From Shigella phage CM1, in sequence record MK962749: 64,000 nucleotides of DNA; one strand, written 5' to 3'. How positions within the stretch are numbered: the first letter of the stretch is position 1; each line of letters opens with the position of its first letter. The notes below the pieces were generated by a model. It made no database searches and was not told the DNA's origin. It saw only the letters and a program-made list of their open reading frames with translations. The position numbers were made by a program, and so were the translations under genes. Below are positions 6,310-42,579 of this stretch, piece by piece.

Positions 6310-6807
6310 ATGAAACTTGATAAAAATGTTCAACGAAAAGCTTTCTTGGATCTTATTGGCTGGGCAGAGGGAACAACAACCCACCCTGCCACTAAATGTG
6401 GAGGATACGATGTTGTAGCATACGGGATGGACGGAAAACCTGAAATCTTTACAGATTTTTCTACGCACCCTTTTGCAAACGGTCGCCCTGGTAAAGTGTT
6501 TAACTCAAAAGGGCAAAGAACTACAGCCTGCGGTAAATATCAATTTCTTGTCAAATACTGGGAACACTACAAAAAACAGCTTAAGTTGCCGGATTTTGGA
6601 CCAGATAGCCAGGATAAGTGGGCAATCCAGTTGATCAGGGAACGTAAAGCACTTGAAGACATAGATAACGGTCATATTAAATCTGCTATACGTAAGACCT
6701 CAAATATTTGGGCTTCGTTCCCATACAACCAGTACGACCAAAATCCAAAAACCATTGACAAGTTGCTTAAGAAATTTGTAGAGTTTGGAGGTGTTGTTCT
6801 GGATTAA
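6310..6807 (+). CDS. endolysin, lambda R-like lytic transglycosylase
   Basis: 165 aa; colinear with remembered lambda R (QRKAFLD, WAEGT, GYDV, SNIWASFP). Confidence 0.85.
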   Translation: MKLDKNVQRKAFLDLIGWAEGTTTHPATKCGGYDVVAYGMDGKPEIFTDFSTHPFANGRPGKVFNSKGQRTTACGKYQFLVKYWEHYKKQLKLPDFGPDSQDKWAIQLIRERKALEDIDNGHIKSAIRKTSNIWASFPYNQYDQNPKTIDKLLKKFVEFGGVVLD

Positions 6808-6861
6808 TGATCAAAAGGTAGGCCACTCGCCTACCTTTCTACACCAGAGGTGTGTTGAGAT

Positions 6862-7623
6862 ATGACGATACATTTCTTTTTTAATGATCACTATCCTTAT
6901 TGGTACAAGGATGGCGATCTAATCTTTTGGAAACCTGGCTACAGTAGGAATGGAAATAGGGCTGGACACTACAACAAAAAGACTGGATATTTCCAAGTGT
7001 ACAATAAGCTGACAAATGTTAAACGTGGCAGACATAGGGAAATTTTTGACATGTTTTATGGATGTGTCACAGATACTTGGCATATCGATCATATCGTCTC
7101 TAAGAAAAATTCTACTAACGGAGTGCCTGTAGACAAGATAGAAAACCTTCAAATGTTGAAGCCATGGGATAACTACTGTAAGAGAGCCTTGGAAAATGTA
7201 CAAAGCAATAATACCTCTACAGTGACTGGTGTGGTATGGCTGAAAAGAGAGGGTAAGTGGAGGGCAAGTAGAAGGATAAATAGGGTAAATGTTAGGTTGG
7301 GAGATTTTGACACTTTCGAAGAGGCTAAATCTAGGATTGAATGGTCGATAGCTAACCCGGAAGAGGCTTTAAAGATAGTTCCAAACCCGCACAAGAATAA
7401 TATCCTGCCCGGTATTGATTGGTCTAAGAAAGATACCTGTTGGAGGGCACGAGATAACAAAGGAAGAAACTTAAGGTGCTTCAACGACAGGAAGTGGCTA
7501 AATCCGTGGTGGGAGGCAGTTTGTGCAAGAAAGTCTTGGGAAGTAAACTGTCTCTACGGAGAGATGTCACTAACTGAGTGGAAGTTATCCAGAGGCTATC
7601 CAAGACCTTGTGTTGAGGATTAA
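6862..7623 (+). CDS. HNH homing endonuclease with AP2 domain
   Basis: HNH core HIDHIV...N...ENLQ; AP2-like TGVVWLKREGKWRASRRINRVNVRLGDFDTFEEAKSR. Confidence 0.75.
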   Translation: MTIHFFFNDHYPYWYKDGDLIFWKPGYSRNGNRAGHYNKKTGYFQVYNKLTNVKRGRHREIFDMFYGCVTDTWHIDHIVSKKNSTNGVPVDKIENLQMLKPWDNYCKRALENVQSNNTSTVTGVVWLKREGKWRASRRINRVNVRLGDFDTFEEAKSRIEWSIANPEEALKIVPNPHKNNILPGIDWSKKDTCWRARDNKGRNLRCFNDRKWLNPWWEAVCARKSWEVNCLYGEMSLTEWKLSRGYPRPCVED

Positions 7624-29765: not shown

Positions 29766-29999
29766 ATGAAAGTTAAATTTCTTACAGATTTAGGGTACCC
29801 TTCCTTGGTTGACTGTGTTGGTAAAATTGTGGAAGCAAAACGGCTATCTGCAAACGAGAATGTTGTCCTGGTTAAAGGGAAGGATTTACTAGCTGCAGGT
29901 GCAGAGTCTGGCAGGATCTCTCCTGATTATATGTATTACCTATCTTTAAGTAATCTGCCAGAGCGAGGCGGTAAAGGCCTTGAAGTTGTGGAGGAGTGA
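29766..29999 (+). CDS. small acidic protein, paralog family member
   Basis: MKVKFL...VKGKDLLAAGAES...LEVVEE. Confidence 0.45.
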   Translation: MKVKFLTDLGYPSLVDCVGKIVEAKRLSANENVVLVKGKDLLAAGAESGRISPDYMYYLSLSNLPERGGKGLEVVEE

Positions 30000-30529
30000 C
30001 AGGTATGCTTCTGATTAACTGGGAAGACCTCTATGGGGACAAAGACCCTGTTGCGTTTGTTGATCGTAGGTGGAGATACACTGAAGAACAACTGGCGGCA
30101 AAAAATTTAACTGCAAAACGCAGAAAGATCATCCAGTGCAAGTACAAATACGCACAGTTTGCTGCAAAAGTGTCTCCACAAATCGAGAGCTTTGTGCTTA
30201 AATTGTATGACGAGTACCTCAAATTCAAATTGGATTTTGTGCAGGTGTACCGTGCACAGGTACGACCAGATACCAACATATGTAGATGGAAGGTTGTTTG
30301 TGAAGGTAAAGATTTGCCGCTCAGCTTGACAATTGAGTGGCGTTATGGGTATCATGAGTGCGGTCTGTATGATATTTGGGATGTCATTGTAGATCCTGCT
30401 AAGCATCTGAACACAGAGGAGCTGGAATATATCAATAAGGTTATTCTCGATATGTTTTTCAGCTACACACATGAAAACTCTGAGAAAGAACGGGATAATT
30501 TTCTTGACACCCTCAGCGACCATTTGTAG
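29996..30529 (+). CDS. hypothetical protein
   Basis: 177-aa ORF. Confidence 0.45.
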   Translation: MTGMLLINWEDLYGDKDPVAFVDRRWRYTEEQLAAKNLTAKRRKIIQCKYKYAQFAAKVSPQIESFVLKLYDEYLKFKLDFVQVYRAQVRPDTNICRWKVVCEGKDLPLSLTIEWRYGYHECGLYDIWDVIVDPAKHLNTEELEYINKVILDMFFSYTHENSEKERDNFLDTLSDHL

Positions 30530-30559
30530 TATACAATTTAACCTACAAAGGGAGGACCA

Positions 30560-30796
30560 ATGAGTATAAATGTTGTGCTAATAGGTTACCTGGTAATGTC
30601 CGTTATAACAGCGGTATTCTTGACAGGTGTATGCATCGTGTCCAGACGAAGGGTGAAGTTTGATGATTTTATCACCATCATCACTGCTGCACCTTTTTGG
30701 CCTGTTGTTATCTTCATCGTGATAATGTGCTTGGTTGATTACTACAAGAATATCCGTAAGGAGAAAAAGGAGGGTAGGGATGGAGACCGCACCTAA
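30560..30796 (+). CDS. small membrane protein
   Basis: 78 aa; two hydrophobic helices. Confidence 0.4.
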   Translation: MSINVVLIGYLVMSVITAVFLTGVCIVSRRRVKFDDFITIITAAPFWPVVIFIVIMCLVDYYKNIRKEKKEGRDGDRT

Positions 30797-30932
30797 AACT
30801 GTTTATACTGTTCTTAAAGAGATTGCGTTCTACGCAGATCTTAGCCAGGCACCTTTATGGGAAAAGAGCATGTATTTAAAATGGTGCGTTAATTTAGGGA
30901 GGCCTTCCAGTGTTTCAAGCCATGTTTATTGA
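30780..30932 (+). CDS. hypothetical small protein
   Basis: Internal ATG of ORF 30735-30932 with AGGAGGG RBS. Confidence 0.3.
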   Translation: METAPKTVYTVLKEIAFYADLSQAPLWEKSMYLKWCVNLGRPSSVSSHVY

Positions 30933-31015
30933 GATGCTATCTGGGGTATTGTTACTGGTAGCCATCTTAGGTGGTGCAGTTCTGATGTATAACTATCTTG
31001 AAAAAGGAGACAGCA

Positions 31016-31201
31016 ATGGTAAAAAATAAATCTTTAGAGCAGGCTGAAAACCTTCTCCACGAGCTGGTAAAGGAGTGGAAAGTTGAATACTCAGATTTTA
31101 ATGCACGAAAGGGTGAAGATTATTGGCCTACGGAGCGCTCAGAGGGCGAATGGTATCAAGATTTTATAGAGTGGTTATATCAGACGTGCGATGAGGGGTG
31201 A
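31016..31201 (+). CDS. hypothetical protein
   Basis: ORF 30998-31201; start at MVKNKS with AAGGAGA RBS. Confidence 0.4.
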   Translation: MVKNKSLEQAENLLHELVKEWKVEYSDFNARKGEDYWPTERSEGEWYQDFIEWLYQTCDEG

Positions 31202-31668
31202 CGATGTTTGTTAAATATGTAAAAACGTGCCTCAACAGTCTTGGCAGAGAGCATTGGTACACCTTGCTTGAAAAAGGGGAAATTTTAACAAAATCTGGAA
31301 AGATAACTTTGATACCTCTTGATAGTAAAGGTAAAGACCCGTCACGACTTGTTATAGATGATTACGTTACAGGTGTGACGTTCGAGGTCTCTGTGGAGAG
31401 GTTAATACGCAGAGCTGGCGGCCCTTATGACCGAAGAGAGTATGTTTTCGATTCCGTTACAGAGATGGGGGAGCATCCGTCTTTAATGTTCAGGATGGTA
31501 ATCAGAGATATGAGGTCATCTATAGATAGGATCGTAAAGGACATTAAGGAACCTTTTAGAGTAAAAGTTAAGAAGTTTTTCGATTCTAAGATTAACATAC
31601 TTGCCGTTGCACTAGGTGTAGTTCAACTTCTGTTAATTTTGCACTATTTTGAACTACTATTTAAGTAG
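31198..31668 (+). CDS. hypothetical protein with C-terminal TM helix
   Basis: 156-aa ORF. Confidence 0.4.
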   Translation: MTMFVKYVKTCLNSLGREHWYTLLEKGEILTKSGKITLIPLDSKGKDPSRLVIDDYVTGVTFEVSVERLIRRAGGPYDRREYVFDSVTEMGEHPSLMFRMVIRDMRSSIDRIVKDIKEPFRVKVKKFFDSKINILAVALGVVQLLLILHYFELLFK

Positions 31669-31730
31669 TAGTTGAGATATGGCACAAAGGATGTGCCATA
31701 GTGAAATAAACTAAGAAAGAGGTAGAGAGA

Positions 31731-32078
31731 ATGCCAAAGATTAAAACGTTATTACTGTGGGTAGCTGTTTTAGCTTTTATAGGGTACTGGACTTGGGAAA
31801 CTGAATTAAAAGATATCGGATATACCAGTCTTGAGAGCAAGGCGTGCATTGGCATAACCGATGCGTTCAGGCAAAATGCTATGGATCACGAATGTGTTGA
31901 TGCAGATATAGATGAGAAACTGTCTAAGGACAAAGATTTTTACCATGGGCATGCTTTACTTGATAGTGGTGACACTGTAGAGTTCTGGTCGTGGTTTCGT
32001 GAAGATGGAACAATAAAAACAGCAGTAAAGATCTCTAACAAAGAGTTAATGCTGTTGCAGCAAAAGGAGGCTCAATGA
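31731..32078 (+). CDS. hypothetical membrane-anchored protein
   Basis: 115 aa; N-terminal TM LLLWVAVLAFIGYWTW. Confidence 0.4.
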   Translation: MPKIKTLLLWVAVLAFIGYWTWETELKDIGYTSLESKACIGITDAFRQNAMDHECVDADIDEKLSKDKDFYHGHALLDSGDTVEFWSWFREDGTIKTAVKISNKELMLLQQKEAQ

Positions 32079-32362
32079 TCTGGATATCCTATGCTGATGG
32101 CACCATGCTGTATACTGCAGGTACCAGATATGAAGTTCAGGAGAACGATAAAAAATTTATCGTAAAAACATTTGACAAGGACGACAACCTTTTGCTAGAA
32201 TTGACTTACAAAGTTGGAGAGGTATCCAATATCCAGTTGGATTGTGGTCATAAAGATAATCCACTCAAAAAACCTGGAGTAGGTAAGGCTTCAGAAGAAC
32301 GTCTGTCTCGTATTGCAGAAAGCGTTTCTCCCCAAAAATCTAAGAAGAGGACTAGAAAATGA
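32075..32362 (+). CDS. hypothetical protein
   Basis: 95-aa ORF. Confidence 0.4.
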   Translation: MIWISYADGTMLYTAGTRYEVQENDKKFIVKTFDKDDNLLLELTYKVGEVSNIQLDCGHKDNPLKKPGVGKASEERLSRIAESVSPQKSKKRTRK

Positions 32363-32553
32363 AAAACTTACGTTTTAACACTTATTACTACAACACATTG
32401 AATGATTTGTATTATATTGTTCGAAGTAAAAGTCTTGAAACAGTCCTATTCTGCCGCGAACCTTTCAAAGGGGAGGAAGTAGAGTCTGAGATGAATGTTA
32501 GCCAGATCACCTCTTTGTTGCTCTCAGGCGCAATGGAAGAAGCAATATTCTAA
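32359..32553 (+). CDS. hypothetical protein
   Basis: 64-aa ORF. Confidence 0.35.
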   Translation: MKNLRFNTYYYNTLNDLYYIVRSKSLETVLFCREPFKGEEVESEMNVSQITSLLLSGAMEEAIF

Positions 32554-32571
32554 ACCAGGCGGGAGGGTTTT

Positions 32572-32757
32572 ATGAAGCACTATTGCCTGTCTGGTAGAAT
32601 GGGTGCAGATTGTGATTGGGTTTTCTTAAAACTTGTCAGCATTCGAGAGTTCATCCCAGAGGAAGAGCAAGAAAGCGAGCTGATGTCATGGATCAACCAT
32701 TACGGTAACACTTTTCGGCATGTTAAGGTAGAAGAGTTGCCAAGCGAGGCTGATTGA
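32572..32757 (+). CDS. hypothetical protein
   Basis: 61-aa ORF. Confidence 0.35.
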   Translation: MKHYCLSGRMGADCDWVFLKLVSIREFIPEEEQESELMSWINHYGNTFRHVKVEELPSEAD

Positions 32758-32759
32758 CT

Positions 32760-32849
32760 ATGATTGCATCAATATTAACGTTTATGGGTGGCGTGGCATT
32801 CGGATTCATTGTTTGCCTGTTTATAGTGATTATGTCTATGCGAGGCTGA
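32760..32849 (+). CDS. 29-aa hydrophobic membrane peptide
   Basis: MIASILTFMGGVAFGFIVCLFIVIMSMRG; fills the gap between adjacent genes. Confidence 0.3.
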   Translation: MIASILTFMGGVAFGFIVCLFIVIMSMRG

Positions 32850-32852
32850 ATT

Positions 32853-33149
32853 ATGAAACTTTTTGAGTGGTTTAAAAAGTTTAAATATAAAGCTGTAGCC
32901 ATCGTGCCGTGGTCCATTCAGTGGGTTGATGAAGGTGGTCTACCGATACCTGGTGACAAAGATACTGGGTACTGGATTATGATGGAGAACGGGTTTGGAA
33001 AGCGAAAGTATACGTGCACAAACTCTACTCGATCTGCACTTAATAGAGTGCCTGGTTACAAACTTATGGTTGTGTGGAAAATGTCAGGCGTGCCTCCAGC
33101 CAATGCTCAATTTCTTACTGACAATCCGACCACGGTAGAGGGAGATTGA
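32853..33149 (+). CDS. hypothetical protein
   Basis: 98-aa ORF. Confidence 0.4.
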   Translation: MKLFEWFKKFKYKAVAIVPWSIQWVDEGGLPIPGDKDTGYWIMMENGFGKRKYTCTNSTRSALNRVPGYKLMVVWKMSGVPPANAQFLTDNPTTVEGD

Positions 33150-33433
33150 TAATGAAAAAGATTAACAGTAGTGAAGTAGAGTTTAAACTTGTCGGAAAAG
33201 GCACTTACTGGGAAGTTCGTCAAAAGGTATATTTGTTCGGTCTTATTCCCTACTGGTCTAAATTCTACTGGGGAGCTAACGAGTTGGGAAGATACGCCAC
33301 CAAATCAATGGCACTTATTGGTATAGCAGAGTACATTGCAGCCAGAGATAGGGTTGGAGACACTTATTACTATACTGCGGACGATATTCGTAACAGTGTT
33401 TACGTCCCACAACCACCTGATGGAGACCGTTGA
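33146..33433 (+). CDS. hypothetical protein
   Basis: 95-aa ORF. Confidence 0.4.
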   Translation: MIMKKINSSEVEFKLVGKGTYWEVRQKVYLFGLIPYWSKFYWGANELGRYATKSMALIGIAEYIAARDRVGDTYYYTADDIRNSVYVPQPPDGDR

Positions 33434-33657
33434 TGAAAGTTAAAGTTTTAAATTCAAGCTTCTATATTGGTCAGGAGCCTTTAGTAGGAAAAGTGTTTAC
33501 TGCTGTCCCTAACGAAGATTACCCTGACCTTTTAAAAATAAAAGGAGCAGATCTTATTGCCGCTGGTGCATCTCAGGAATGCTTTGACAGTCAGTGGACC
33601 TACAACTTTGCCCTAGGTGAGGATGTAGAGGTAGTGGAGGACGATCATGAAGGTTAA
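33430..33657 (+). CDS. small acidic protein, paralog family member
   Basis: MMKVKVL...IKGADLIAAGAS...VEVVEDDHEG. Confidence 0.45.
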   Translation: MMKVKVLNSSFYIGQEPLVGKVFTAVPNEDYPDLLKIKGADLIAAGASQECFDSQWTYNFALGEDVEVVEDDHEG

Positions 33658-33901
33658 AATTCTTGATTCTAACGTCTACTTGGGACAATCCTTCCTGAAT
33701 GGGAAGGTCGTTCCTGCGGTATACTTTGAAGGGTTGCCGTGGGAGGATCCTGTGCGGCAACATCACAGTTATGTAGGCCACAACGTGGTGTTTATCTTGG
33801 GATCAGACCTGATCACCGCTGGTGCACCTGAATATTATTTCGGGGAAGGGTCCTACTATGCCTTTGGGGTAGGGTCAGATGCAGATATTGTAGAGCTGTG
33901 A
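33647..33901 (+). CDS. small acidic protein, paralog family member
   Basis: MKVKIL...ILGSDLITAGAPE...DADIVEL. Confidence 0.45.
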   Translation: MKVKILDSNVYLGQSFLNGKVVPAVYFEGLPWEDPVRQHHSYVGHNVVFILGSDLITAGAPEYYFGEGSYYAFGVGSDADIVEL

Positions 33902-33913
33902 TGGGTAACCGTT

Positions 33914-34312
33914 GTGAAAAATAAACTGTTTAAAGTTACAATGAAAATTCGCGGGGCTTGGAGCGTAAAGCAAGGGCGTATTCCAGAATTTGAGAAAGAC
34001 TTCTACGTAGTCTCCACCTCGGAGGAGGCTGCATGCTGGCAGGCTGGCTATGCCTATGCAAGAACCTGGTACGAAGGATACCAGACTGGGGGCTATGACG
34101 GAGAAATTATCAGCAAGGGTGTAGAAGAAATTAATGTGTTGACAAGTGAAAAAGTTTTTGTTATAGTGCATCCAGATTCCAGAGTGAAGCATTACTGGAA
34201 TGCCAGAACAAAAACTTGGACACCGTTTGCAGATTCTGCTACGCCACTTTTAAACCAGAAAGCTCTTGACTCTGCCCCAAGTTATGGGGTTGTTGAAGAA
34301 AAGCTAAACTGA
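33914..34312 (+). CDS. hypothetical protein, paralog of 36119-36514
   Basis: Shares the pattern V..HP.S...YW...WTP with ORF 36119. Confidence 0.45.
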   Translation: MKNKLFKVTMKIRGAWSVKQGRIPEFEKDFYVVSTSEEAACWQAGYAYARTWYEGYQTGGYDGEIISKGVEEINVLTSEKVFVIVHPDSRVKHYWNARTKTWTPFADSATPLLNQKALDSAPSYGVVEEKLN

Positions 34313-34329
34313 AACAGTGAGGTGTCACC

Positions 34330-34620
34330 ATGATGGATTTAATTCTAAATATTGATAACGCAGGAGAGTTTAAAGACGATGGTGTAACAAGCGTGGACAA
34401 ACCCTGCTCTGCTAAGGTTGACTCAAAATGGACCTACAAGTTTGACGGAGAGATCTTCGCAAATGATGAGAAGGTTGTAGATGCTGCAGCCATTTTAAAC
34501 GCTCTAGGGTACGACCCTGTGAATTCTTTGATCAAGGATCCTGTTGAGTTTGCAGAGTATGTTCGAAAAATGGCAGATCTTGCTGTGGATATTTTAAAAA
34601 CTATCGACAACAAGCTGTAA
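34330..34620 (+). CDS. hypothetical protein
   Basis: 96-aa ORF. Confidence 0.4.
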   Translation: MMDLILNIDNAGEFKDDGVTSVDKPCSAKVDSKWTYKFDGEIFANDEKVVDAAAILNALGYDPVNSLIKDPVEFAEYVRKMADLAVDILKTIDNKL

Positions 34621-34625
34621 AAACT

Positions 34626-34654
34626 GTTGACACAACGCTTCAGATTTAGTATCA
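34626..34654 (+). promoter_or_regulatory. sigma70-like promoter upstream of hpf-like gene
   Basis: TTGACA, 17 bp, TATCAT; approximate. Confidence 0.5.
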
Positions 34655-34702
34655 TTGTTTTCAAAGAGGGTTTGGTTCCCTCTTCTTTAAAAGGAACACG
34701 TT

Positions 34703-35020
34703 ATGCAAATTGAAATCACTGGCAACGTAGAAATCACTGAAGGTATGGTGTCTTTCATTTCCCACAAAATGTCTAAGCTGGAGCGTTTGCACCCCTCTGC
34801 CAACTATGCACGTGTGAGTGTAAAAGTTGAAAATGATCACCAGGAAGTTATGGCGCTCATTTTTGACAATTCTGGAAAAGAAGTTATTGCCAAGGCTAAA
34901 GGTAGTGATGCTTACGAGGCAACTGACCGTATGGTAGATGTTGCAGCACGTCAGTTGGCTAAATGCGGTGGAAAGAAAGGTAAGGGGAAAGGCAAAGTAA
35001 AGATTGACTTTGGAGAATGA
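34703..35020 (+). CDS. ribosome hibernation promoting factor / RaiA (YfiA) family protein
   Basis: MQIEITGNVEITEGM...KLERL...VSVKVE...DAYEATDRMVDVAARQLAK is colinear with remembered E. coli HPF/YfiA. Confidence 0.75.
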   Translation: MQIEITGNVEITEGMVSFISHKMSKLERLHPSANYARVSVKVENDHQEVMALIFDNSGKEVIAKAKGSDAYEATDRMVDVAARQLAKCGGKKGKGKGKVKIDFGE

Positions 35021-35157
35021 GGTGCTACAATGGGTGTGATTAAGAAATTAGCCCCAAATGTAGAGATTGCATGCTTTGAAATTATGTTTGCAATCGCAGT
35101 TGTAGTTAATGTGTTAGGTTACGGCTATTAATATCAAATAATTGAGGAGACCTCTAA

Positions 35158-35427
35158 ATGAAAATTAAATTATTCAAAACTGAGCTGGCAGACAAAAACT
35201 GTGGACTGGTTGAAGGCATGATTGTCGAAGCACAACCAGTTGACTATATGAAGGTGGTTCGTGATGCCCTGGGTGAAGGTTTTGATCTGATGGAGCCAGC
35301 TCTGCGAGAAGATGTTATCGAGATGGCTAAAAAGCACACACCTGAAGGAATGGTGGTGTTTGTTGCACCGGGTAACGGAGAAGAGTTGATTGTAACTCCG
35401 GATGTGTATGAGATTGTAGAGGAATAA
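35158..35427 (+). CDS. small acidic protein, paralog family member
   Basis: MKIKLF...FVAPGNGEELIVTPDVYEIVEE. Confidence 0.45.
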   Translation: MKIKLFKTELADKNCGLVEGMIVEAQPVDYMKVVRDALGEGFDLMEPALREDVIEMAKKHTPEGMVVFVAPGNGEELIVTPDVYEIVEE

Positions 35428-35518
35428 TCCTGCTTGGATTAGCATACTTCCTCGACAAGGAAGGTTTGTAATTATTTGTGGGAAAGGAATCCCAATCTCT
35501 TACCAGAGGTGATACTAT

Positions 35519-35782
35519 ATGATTGTTTATTTTAAAACTTCAGGTGGATACCCTGATTCTCAAAGCTTGATCGGAAAAACGTGCACAGCATACTCACCTC
35601 TTGATGAGGAGGTAAGTGATATCCTACGAGATATGTATCGGATTGACCCCCAAGAAGCCTTTGATCAAAACCTTGTATTTGTCAAGGGCTCAGATATGAA
35701 GTCTTTGGGAGCATTCCCTGAAGCAGATGATGATGCCGTTTATTCGTTCATGACTCCTTTTGAAGCTATGGTTGTTGGGTGA
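35519..35782 (+). CDS. small acidic protein, paralog family member
   Basis: FVKGSDMKSLGAFPE core shared with family. Confidence 0.45.
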   Translation: MIVYFKTSGGYPDSQSLIGKTCTAYSPLDEEVSDILRDMYRIDPQEAFDQNLVFVKGSDMKSLGAFPEADDDAVYSFMTPFEAMVVG

Positions 35783-35786
35783 TAAT

Positions 35787-36119
35787 ATGAAAGTACGCTT
35801 TATTGGTGAAACAATTCCTGTGCATCTCCGGTCGCCTGAGGATTCTGCAGATCTTGCATCTCAAAAGGCGAGAGGTTATGATAAGAAAGTAACCTCAACC
35901 GATGTAGTGCTTGAGGCTACTAGTCTACCTGACCCTGCTGCATTCTTTAATCATTATGGGTACTATTTCAGCAATCTGATGAATATCGGTGAGCTTGTGT
36001 TTATTAGTGGTGGAGAAATTGTTGGCAAGCTTGGCGGCGATCCGGATATCTTTCATGAAACCTGTCCTTTTGCATTTGTGGTAGGTTCAGATGTGGAAGT
36101 TATTGAGGAGGTGCGGTAA
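35787..36119 (+). CDS. small acidic protein, paralog family member
   Basis: Start at MKVRFIGE; ...FVVGSDVEVIEEVR. Confidence 0.45.
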   Translation: MKVRFIGETIPVHLRSPEDSADLASQKARGYDKKVTSTDVVLEATSLPDPAAFFNHYGYYFSNLMNIGELVFISGGEIVGKLGGDPDIFHETCPFAFVVGSDVEVIEEVR

Positions 36120-36514
36120 TGGTAAGCCTATACCGTGTTGAGTATAGCTCAGATACTGTATACAACGTAAGAAGCAAAGATCGCAGCGACAGAGTGCAAG
36201 AAATGTATGTTCTTGCCGACAGTCCGTTATCTGCAGCGTTCAAGGCAGGGGCTCTTGCATCTCGTTGGAAATTTGAAGGTGGATCTTTCTATGAAGAAAC
36301 CCTTGAAGATTCTGTTGTTATTTCTTCTGTAGAGGTTTCAGATGACTACGAAGGGAAAAAGTTCGTAATGCGGCACCCACACAGCAACATTGCGTACTAC
36401 TGGGATGTTCTGAACAACGAGTGGACCCCAGATCTTCAGAAGGCTACTGTGCTAACACCGTTTTTGGCAGATAAGTTCCCACCAGAAGGTAATTTATCCG
36501 CACTGTTTCAGTAA
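36119..36514 (+). CDS. hypothetical protein, paralog of 33914-34312
   Basis: 131-aa ORF with shared HP..YYW..WTP segment. Confidence 0.45.
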   Translation: MVSLYRVEYSSDTVYNVRSKDRSDRVQEMYVLADSPLSAAFKAGALASRWKFEGGSFYEETLEDSVVISSVEVSDDYEGKKFVMRHPHSNIAYYWDVLNNEWTPDLQKATVLTPFLADKFPPEGNLSALFQ

Positions 36515-36590: not shown

Positions 36591-36851
36591 TTGATGAAGA
36601 TTAAATTGAAAAACCTTGAAACGGCAGAGATTCAGGACGGTGTTGATTTCCGTTCTAAAGATGGTGACATCTTAGAGGTAAATATTCCAACCTACGAGCT
36701 GATTAAAGGTTTTGGCAACGTTCCGGAAGAGGATATTACAGAAATTCTTATGATGTTGATTATTGACGGAACTGTGTTTGTAGGTGAAGGTGAGAACGCT
36801 ATTGCAATCCCAGGCCATTTTTATGAAGTAGTTGACGAAGAGGTGCTGTAA
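36591..36851 (+). CDS. small acidic protein, paralog family member
   Basis: MMKIKLKNL...HFYEVVDEEVL; promoter-like TTGACA upstream near 36533. Confidence 0.45.
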   Translation: MMKIKLKNLETAEIQDGVDFRSKDGDILEVNIPTYELIKGFGNVPEEDITEILMMLIIDGTVFVGEGENAIAIPGHFYEVVDEEVL

Positions 36852-41533: not shown

Positions 41534-42579
41534 GGCGGACGGAATGGGAATACTTCTCATTCTTATAACAATTCTCAAATATCGAGGCAGTGAGAGAAAT
41601 TAATAGGCCAGGCCGTTCACACAGTGGCACAACATTTGCAACCTATTTTGTGTGGATGAATGAGAATACCTATCATTGTGAGAACTGTTATCATTACGGG
41701 CAATTTAACATAATACCCATTATGCGCACCACTGGCGATACATACAGGGATTGATAACATGGGTTACTGTTTACGCACATAACAATTATATTTCTTATTA
41801 TTTGTGGGGGATATAGTTAGCAGCCAATAGATTAGATATTGACCTGCAGACTTCTGACCGTCTAGACGTCTAAACGCCCACACATCAAGGGTTATACATA
41901 CATTACTGAATGTAAACAAGGCCGCAAAAATGCTACCATACCAGTTTGTAAATTTTTCATGCAGCACTTGACAAAGAGGAGGAAAACTTGTCTGACATAC
42001 TGTGACATAATATGACATAATAGTGACACACTGGGCATACTCAACACACTGGATACGGCGGACGGAATGGGAATACTTCTCATTCTTATAACAATTCTCA
42101 AATATCGAGGCAGTGAGAGAAATTAATAGGCCAGGCCGTTCACACAGTGGCACAACATTTGCAACCTATTTTGTGTGGATGAATGAGAATACCTATCATT
42201 GTGAGAACTGTTATCATTACGGGCAATTTAACATAATACCCATTATGCGCACCACTGGCGATACATACAGGGATTGATAACATGGGTTACTGTTTACGCA
42301 CATAACAATTATATTTCTTATTATTTGTGGGGGATATAGTTAGCAGCCAATAGATTAGATATTGACCTGCAGACTTCTGACCGTCTAGACGTCTAAACGC
42401 CCACACATCAAGGGTTATACATACATTACTGAATGTAAACAAGGCCGCAAAAATGCTACCATACCAGTTTGTAAATTTTTCATGCAGCACTTGACAAAGA
42501 GGAGGAAAACTTGTCTGACATACTGTGACATAATATGACATAATAGTGACACACTGGGCATACTCAACACACTGGATAC
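41534..42579. repeat. tandem direct repeat, 2 copies of about 523 bp
   Basis: Minus-strand track ORFs 41764-42153 and 42287-42679 share an identical 96-aa C-terminal segment; likewise 41892 and 42415; both offsets 523 nt. Confidence 0.85.

Follow-up and report, generated by a model that had tools for sequence, protein, structure and literature searches.

The open reading frame at positions 34703..35020 (+ strand) of the analyzed window, i.e. the complete 64,000-nucleotide stretch of Shigella phage CM1 DNA (MK962749), encodes a 105-aa protein (ATG start, stop codon included) that truly belongs to the HPF/YfiA (Ribosomal_S30AE) family, in which it is of the short, gammaproteobacterial HPF type. 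Its translation agrees exactly with the sequence given in a first-pass annotation. The reading of this frame as a colinear HPF/RaiA homolog, given in a first-pass annotation made from the sequence, was confirmed by profile search, sequence comparison and structural modeling (49.2 bits against PF02482, 43% identity to E. coli HPF and an rmsd of 1.2 Å to the latter). The identification is correct but already known: the gene has been annotated since 2008, and the protein was published and tested in 2019; as it is annotated in many records and covered by this publication, the finding is not new. With regard to its role, the protein probably, though by no means certainly, is made early in infection and binds in a salt-labile manner to the 30S decoding channel, the canonical site of the family.

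PF02482 was the only Pfam domain above cut-off in the protein (49.2 bits versus a gathering score of 23.7, E 8.8e-13, profile positions 1-83 of 88), so that the profile check proposed in the first-pass annotation turned out positive. The HPF/YfiA family model TIGR00741 was passed as well (46.6 bits versus a cut-off of 40.9), and PHROG 12469 was matched across the full protein length. Among the NCBIfam equivalogs the HPF model NF007780 gave the best match (55.8 bits, far under its cut-off of 125), while the RaiA model NF007654 scored 17.7 bits, far under its cut-off of 158. The best sequence matches in the PDB were E. coli HPF entries (2RQL, 4V8H, 6H4N; E ~1e-12 to 4e-12), colinear over residues 1-89. 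Such scores place the similarity to HPF far outside the range of chance. In BLASTP comparisons with the K-12 proteins (HPF and RaiA sequences taken from NC_000913.3) the identity amounted to 43% for HPF (88 aa) and 25% for RaiA. By sequence, the phage protein is thus HPF-like rather than RaiA-like; in consequence of the low RaiA identity, the low NF007654 score and the unrelated tail sequences, the RefSeq name “RaiA” appears poorly founded. A C-terminal dimerization domain of the long-HPF type was absent according to both the Pfam profile search and the structural model; the protein ends at residue 105.

The AlphaFold2 model (overall pLDDT 83.9) displayed the element order of HPF, with a structured part (E2-7, H13-29, E33-43, E46-55, E60-67, H70-89; pLDDT ~90) encoded by positions 34703..34969 (+ strand). 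The first match in the Foldseek comparison with the PDB was ribosome-bound E. coli HPF (6h4n_x, from the 100S particle; TM 0.81/0.89, rmsd 1.2 Å), and V. cholerae HPF (4hei) was also among the best. Indeed, all of the top 36 PDB matches were HPF, YfiA or pY structures, mostly determined in ribosome-bound form.

The window is that of a Vequintavirus, an rV5-like E. coli myophage: over the 3 kb that surround the gene (33500-36500), identity amounted to 98-99% with upwards of 100 phages of this genus, including phiWec191, EdH4, O157 typing phage 14, FFH2 and rV5. By tblastn, the protein was at least 95% identical in about 115 GenBank records; the gene was found in about 118 of the about 120 phage records that contain the surrounding region. 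The “hpf” product of E. coli O157 typing phage 14 was 100% identical, as compared with 99% for the rV5 counterpart gp139/ORF144 (NC_011041; ABI79209 / YP_002003641), which has the same position and promoter (L52 versus F52 there). Eighteen MG0656xx records labeled “Campylobacter phage” (host C. jejuni) were likewise 98-99% identical to window positions 33500-36500; they most likely represent mislabeled or contaminant genomes.

Among 1.84 billion representatives, only 27 proteins were retrieved at E <=1e-3 by exhaustive HMMER searching, and the nearest non-phage protein was an E. coli-like HPF (45% identity, E 2.8e-7); the phage clade is thus isolated. A word-indexed homolog search retrieved nothing beyond the phage clade, and scanning IMG/VR with the clade alignment gave only two close relatives and did not reveal deeper phage diversity. 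A diverged ortholog (P0004 on L002; 103 aa, 64% identity) occupies the syntenic place in an rV5-like lineage that has diverged from that of the window and is absent from the phage collection searched; its neighbors pair one-for-one with window ORFs at 29-87% identity. Within the searched records, the gene was confined to one phage genus and this sister lineage. The dN/dS ratio versus rV5 was 0.065 (one non-synonymous and four synonymous substitutions), while synonymous sites were saturated in the comparison with the L002 ortholog (pS 0.79). On these alignments, the gene is under purifying selection, and it is a stable resident of the rV5-like (Vequintavirus) early-gene block; the identity of at most 43-45% to cellular HPFs points to an old, maintained acquisition. 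Apart from the HPF gene, the L002 locus carries a PF27050 (Phage_P22_Y8K6) gene at 6780-7076, flanked by the orthologs of window ORFs 36119-36514 and 36591-36851; as tblastn detected no counterpart in the window, it is an insertion into the early block specific to that lineage.

The residues by which HPF of E. coli, E. hormaechei and P. aeruginosa contacts the ribosome were taken from a cryo-EM preprint (bioRxiv 10.1101/2025.10.07.680626) and transferred by alignment. Six of the nine contact positions were kept (K23, K26, R83, Q84, K87 and K91 in E. coli numbering): the first five are retained in the phage proteins and K91 in the lineage of the window. At the position of Q29 the phage proteins have arginine, the majority residue of the family at this site. 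Three positions were lost in both phage lineages (window/L002), i.e. E/D51 (M/S), K80 (V/T) and K89 (G/S); among 20 bacterial representatives, glutamate was present at position 51 in 17, and lysine at positions 80 and 89 in 15 each. Further replacements affected Y30 (L), T53 (L/R) and H55 (F).

The structured part is followed by a tail comprising residues 90-105 (GKKGKGKGKVKIDFGE; positions 34970..35017, + strand) that is predicted to be disordered (pLDDT < 50 at residues 91-105). Its Lys/Gly-rich character, already pointed out in the first-pass annotation, is evident from residues 88-100 (CGGKKGKGKGKVK). The tail exceeds that of E. coli HPF by about ten residues and falls short of that of RaiA by eight. 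Compared with the L002 ortholog it diverged faster than the core (pN 0.45 versus 0.22), the tail of the former (SKSKGIDKRTAKWDY) being still basic; in both phage lineages the basic stretch has an aromatic/acidic ending (IDFGE and WDY, respectively). On alignment, the resemblance to the RaiA tail is one of layout only, sequence similarity being nil.

Directly 5' of the gene, a predicted sigma-70-type promoter (TTGACA-17 nt-TATCAT; 34627..34655, + strand) agrees with the consensus at 11 of 12 positions, and a Shine-Dalgarno-like AAGGA (34691..34695, + strand) is located 7 nt 5' of the ATG. In line with the consensus promoter put forward in the first-pass annotation, the homologous site of the rV5 record NC_011041 carries the annotation “Sigma70-type promoter P144”, and a TTGACA box is likewise present 5' of the L002 ortholog. 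Between 30 and 40 kb, five sites matched the sigma-70 consensus at 11 of 12 positions (30326, 32172, 34139, 34627 and 36533), all on the + strand; promoter-like sites in general were enriched between positions 30000 and 40000 (33 versus 20.1 +/- 3.6 in shuffled sequences). This pattern is consistent with an early region read by host RNA polymerase, and the uniform strand of the best matches together with the near-consensus HPF promoter argues for early expression by this enzyme; transcript or expression-timing data on the gene were not found in the literature. A hairpin in the 5' untranslated region (34664-34684, -9.9 kcal/mol) was dropped as a candidate element: shuffled sequences folded equally well (z -0.2), the hairpin was absent from the leader of the L002 ortholog, and there was no terminator call.

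The surroundings are a run of small acidic ORFs, as described in the first-pass annotation (33.4-40.5 kb: 22 ORFs on the + strand, 18 with a pI < 6). None of the ten ORFs neighboring the HPF homolog matched a Pfam family, and their PHROGs were all of “unknown function”; the HPF homolog is thus the sole recognizable gene of this stretch. Neither tRNA genes nor Rfam matches were detected in the window. Another promoter-like site (TTGACT-16-TACAAT with TG extension, 10/12) extends over the final HPF codons (35004-35131 region); 3' of it lies a 33-aa hydrophobic ORF (35030-35131; PHROG 15151) that is named “putative membrane protein” in phage A51.2, and in its place no gene is called at the L002 locus, where the gap measures 84 nt. 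Several small ORFs around the HPF gene are related (33430-33657, 33647-33901, 29766-29999 and 35760-36119): PHROG 5009 is common to 33430-33657 and 33647-33901 and was weakly matched by 35519-35782 as well, and PHROG 7379 is common to 33914-34312 and 36119-36514 (28% identity). The similarity of these ORFs (29766-36514), all without an assigned function, suggests that the early block has undergone local duplications. Farther downstream, a 523-bp unit is repeated exactly and in tandem (41534-42056 = 42057-42579) within an ORF-poor stretch (~40.7-44.8 kb), at a place homologous to an ORF-free region described in the rV5 paper. Close relatives align to this 4.1-kb stretch over only ~3.54 kb and, thus, appear to be single-copy for the unit; the repeat either arose recently by a real duplication or is an artefact of the assembly.

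In many GenBank records the gene is named “sigma 54 modulation factor”, “hpf: ribosome hibernation promoting factor”, “RaiA”, “ribosome hibernation factor” (BASEL phages) or “S30AE”; the name “ATP-dependent protease La type I” in OR062525, OR062528, OR062530 and MT884008-11 is erroneous. Virus-encoded HPFs, i.e. rV5 ABI79209 and five relatives, were treated by Mizuno et al. 2019 (Nat Commun 10:752, PMC6375957), who expressed the rV5 gene from arabinose-induced pBAD24 in E. coli NM522. The rV5 protein was seen in the cell extract, but no peptides were found in high-salt-washed 70S and 100S ribosomes; the 100S particles were unchanged upon expression, with RMF levels and growth phase uncontrolled for that purpose. 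Growth phase, lost binding or dissociation by salt were named by the authors as reasons for the missing association, and the test was non-decisive; they speculated that the viral HPF competes with the cellular factor and thereby prevents dimer formation (PMC6375957). Of the first-pass interpretation, the family identity held, whereas the manipulation of host ribosome pools was not borne out by this admittedly non-decisive experiment. A functional study of the gene after 2019 was not found in the literature; CRISPRi-ART on the rV5-like phage EdH4 targeted capsid and rII genes only.

Since the residues kept by selection are the 16S rRNA contacts of cellular HPF and the fold is unchanged, binding in the decoding channel is the most economical reading of the protein. 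The hpf homolog would be transcribed by host RNA polymerase soon after infection, and its product would go to the decoding channel of vacant 30S and 70S particles. Owing to the replacement of E51, K80 and K89, this binding would probably be weaker than that of the cellular factors and salt-labile, for which the extended basic tail may partly compensate. The loss of E51 and of the two lysines on the helix-2 track plausibly lowers the affinity, which would accord with the failure to detect the protein on salt-washed ribosomes. The classical analyses of cellular hibernation factors used crude, low-salt ribosomes; given this practice, we regard the salt-washed negative as compatible with binding. 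Three outcomes of such an occupancy may be envisaged: the protein could park or shield host ribosomes (the 3' region of the 16S rRNA and the decoding center) during takeover, it could damp initiation on host mRNAs, or it could antagonize the hibernation driven by RMF, HPF and RaiA as proposed by Mizuno et al.

The last of these outcomes leads to a distinct explanation, which we rate as unlikely overall albeit worth serious consideration: the protein might be a decoy against hibernation, a weak or reversible competitor of host HPF and RaiA, and perhaps of RMF by way of its longer basic tail, that would stop or reverse the formation of 100S and inactive 70S particles and thus free ribosomes for phage mRNAs in slow-growing or defense-arrested hosts. 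This idea of Mizuno et al. fits both the missing stable association and the missing 100S induction, and the absence of K80, K89 and E51 from both phage lineages speaks for it; furthermore, the tail extends about ten residues beyond E. coli HPF, the longer C-terminal tail of RaiA blocks RMF according to the literature, and RMF is induced during DRT2 defense according to a review. However, an occupant of the A/P-site channel would itself be inhibitory, so that “waking” of ribosomes demands fast off-rates, and the tail lacks sequence similarity to that of RaiA and shows little conservation from one phage lineage to the other. A related and doubtful extension, prompted by the lineage-wide loss of E51, K80 and K89 and by the fast-evolving poly-basic tail, is that the protein might be tuned as a low-affinity occupant of the decoding channel, acting as a reversible shield or competitor and not as a hibernation factor of the cellular type. 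If this were true, it would either displace host HPF, RaiA and RMF and reawaken dormant ribosomes, or be a transient early shield of the 16S 3' region and decoding center from ribosome-targeting toxins and defense nucleases.

The retained contacts also bear on a repurposing of the scaffold for another ligand, be it a nucleotide immune signal as in the Acb4 sponge, a different RNA or, for instance, a protein of the host. The Acb4 phage sponge structurally resembles HPF 4HEI (Chang et al., bioRxiv 10.1101/2024.12.30.630793), Acb4 (9e4w) and the T7 Gp1.2 dGTPase inhibitor (7u66) were weak fold matches to the model, Mizuno et al. saw no ribosome association, and the gene lies among small uncharacterized early ORFs, the type of neighborhood that harbors anti-defense genes. 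Nevertheless, repurposing is improbable: PF13876, the Acb4 family, was not matched even at E values up to 10, Acb4 (9e4w_N) ranked only 47th (E 0.025, TM 0.52/0.60 versus 0.81-0.89 for HPF), and selection kept the rRNA contacts K23, K26, R83, Q84 and K87, which a new function would not need. An identity as an Acb4-like sponge or T7 Gp1.2-like inhibitor was accordingly rejected, the fold matches being marginal and profile matches lacking. That the gene is a neutral passenger, captured from a host and without a role in infection, would agree with its restriction to one phage genus and a sister lineage and with the lack of a phenotype in the single published assay; yet it is very improbable in view of the same position in ~118 genomes and in the 64%-identical lineage, the dN/dS ratio of 0.065, the own promoter and Shine-Dalgarno sequence, and the identity of no more than 43-45% to cellular HPFs among 1.84 billion representatives, which indicates an old, maintained acquisition.

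The occurrence of a hibernation factor in a virus suggests that phages adjust how many host ribosomes stand idle, and such tuning bears on the infection of slow-growing or defense-arrested bacteria; like the gene itself, this idea was published in 2019. The Vequintaviruses are common candidates for therapy and biocontrol and are represented in the BASEL collection, which makes their genetics accessible.

Compared with known systems, the Acb4 anti-CBASS sponge (PF13876; 9E4W) is likewise a small early phage protein with an HPF-resembling fold; in contrast to the HPF homolog, it has a dsRBD-like alpha-beta-beta-beta-alpha arrangement without the first strand, and there is no profile match between them. 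The HPF-like proteins of the jumbo phages (Cronobacter phage GAP32, Escherichia phage PBECO4; ~110 aa) share the S30AE fold, but their identity is only 22-23% and both were missed by tblastn, which probably indicates an independent acquisition; GAP32 was listed together with rV5 and grouped with Firmicutes sequences by Mizuno et al. (PMC6375957). E. coli RaiA (YfiA, protein Y) agrees with the phage protein in family, fold and a basic, then acidic/hydrophobic C-terminal extension past the length of short HPFs, but differs in sequence (25% identity) and has an unrelated tail. In rV5 (gp139) and the other Vequintavirus orthologs the same gene is present with 99-100% identity, a single substitution separating the window protein from that of rV5. 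E. coli HPF (YhbH) is colinear over residues 1-89 (43% identity), likewise lacks the C-terminal dimerization domain and shares K23, K26, R83, Q84, K87 and K91. Unlike this ~95-aa protein, the phage homolog is ten residues longer with a disordered Lys/Gly tail, has lost E/D51, K80 and K89 and carries Y30 to L, T53 to L and H55 to F replacements, and its rV5 version was undetected on salt-washed ribosomes and had no effect on 100S particles (PMC6375957); and whereas E. coli hpf belongs to the rpoN operon, the phage gene resides in an early block under a near-consensus sigma-70 promoter.
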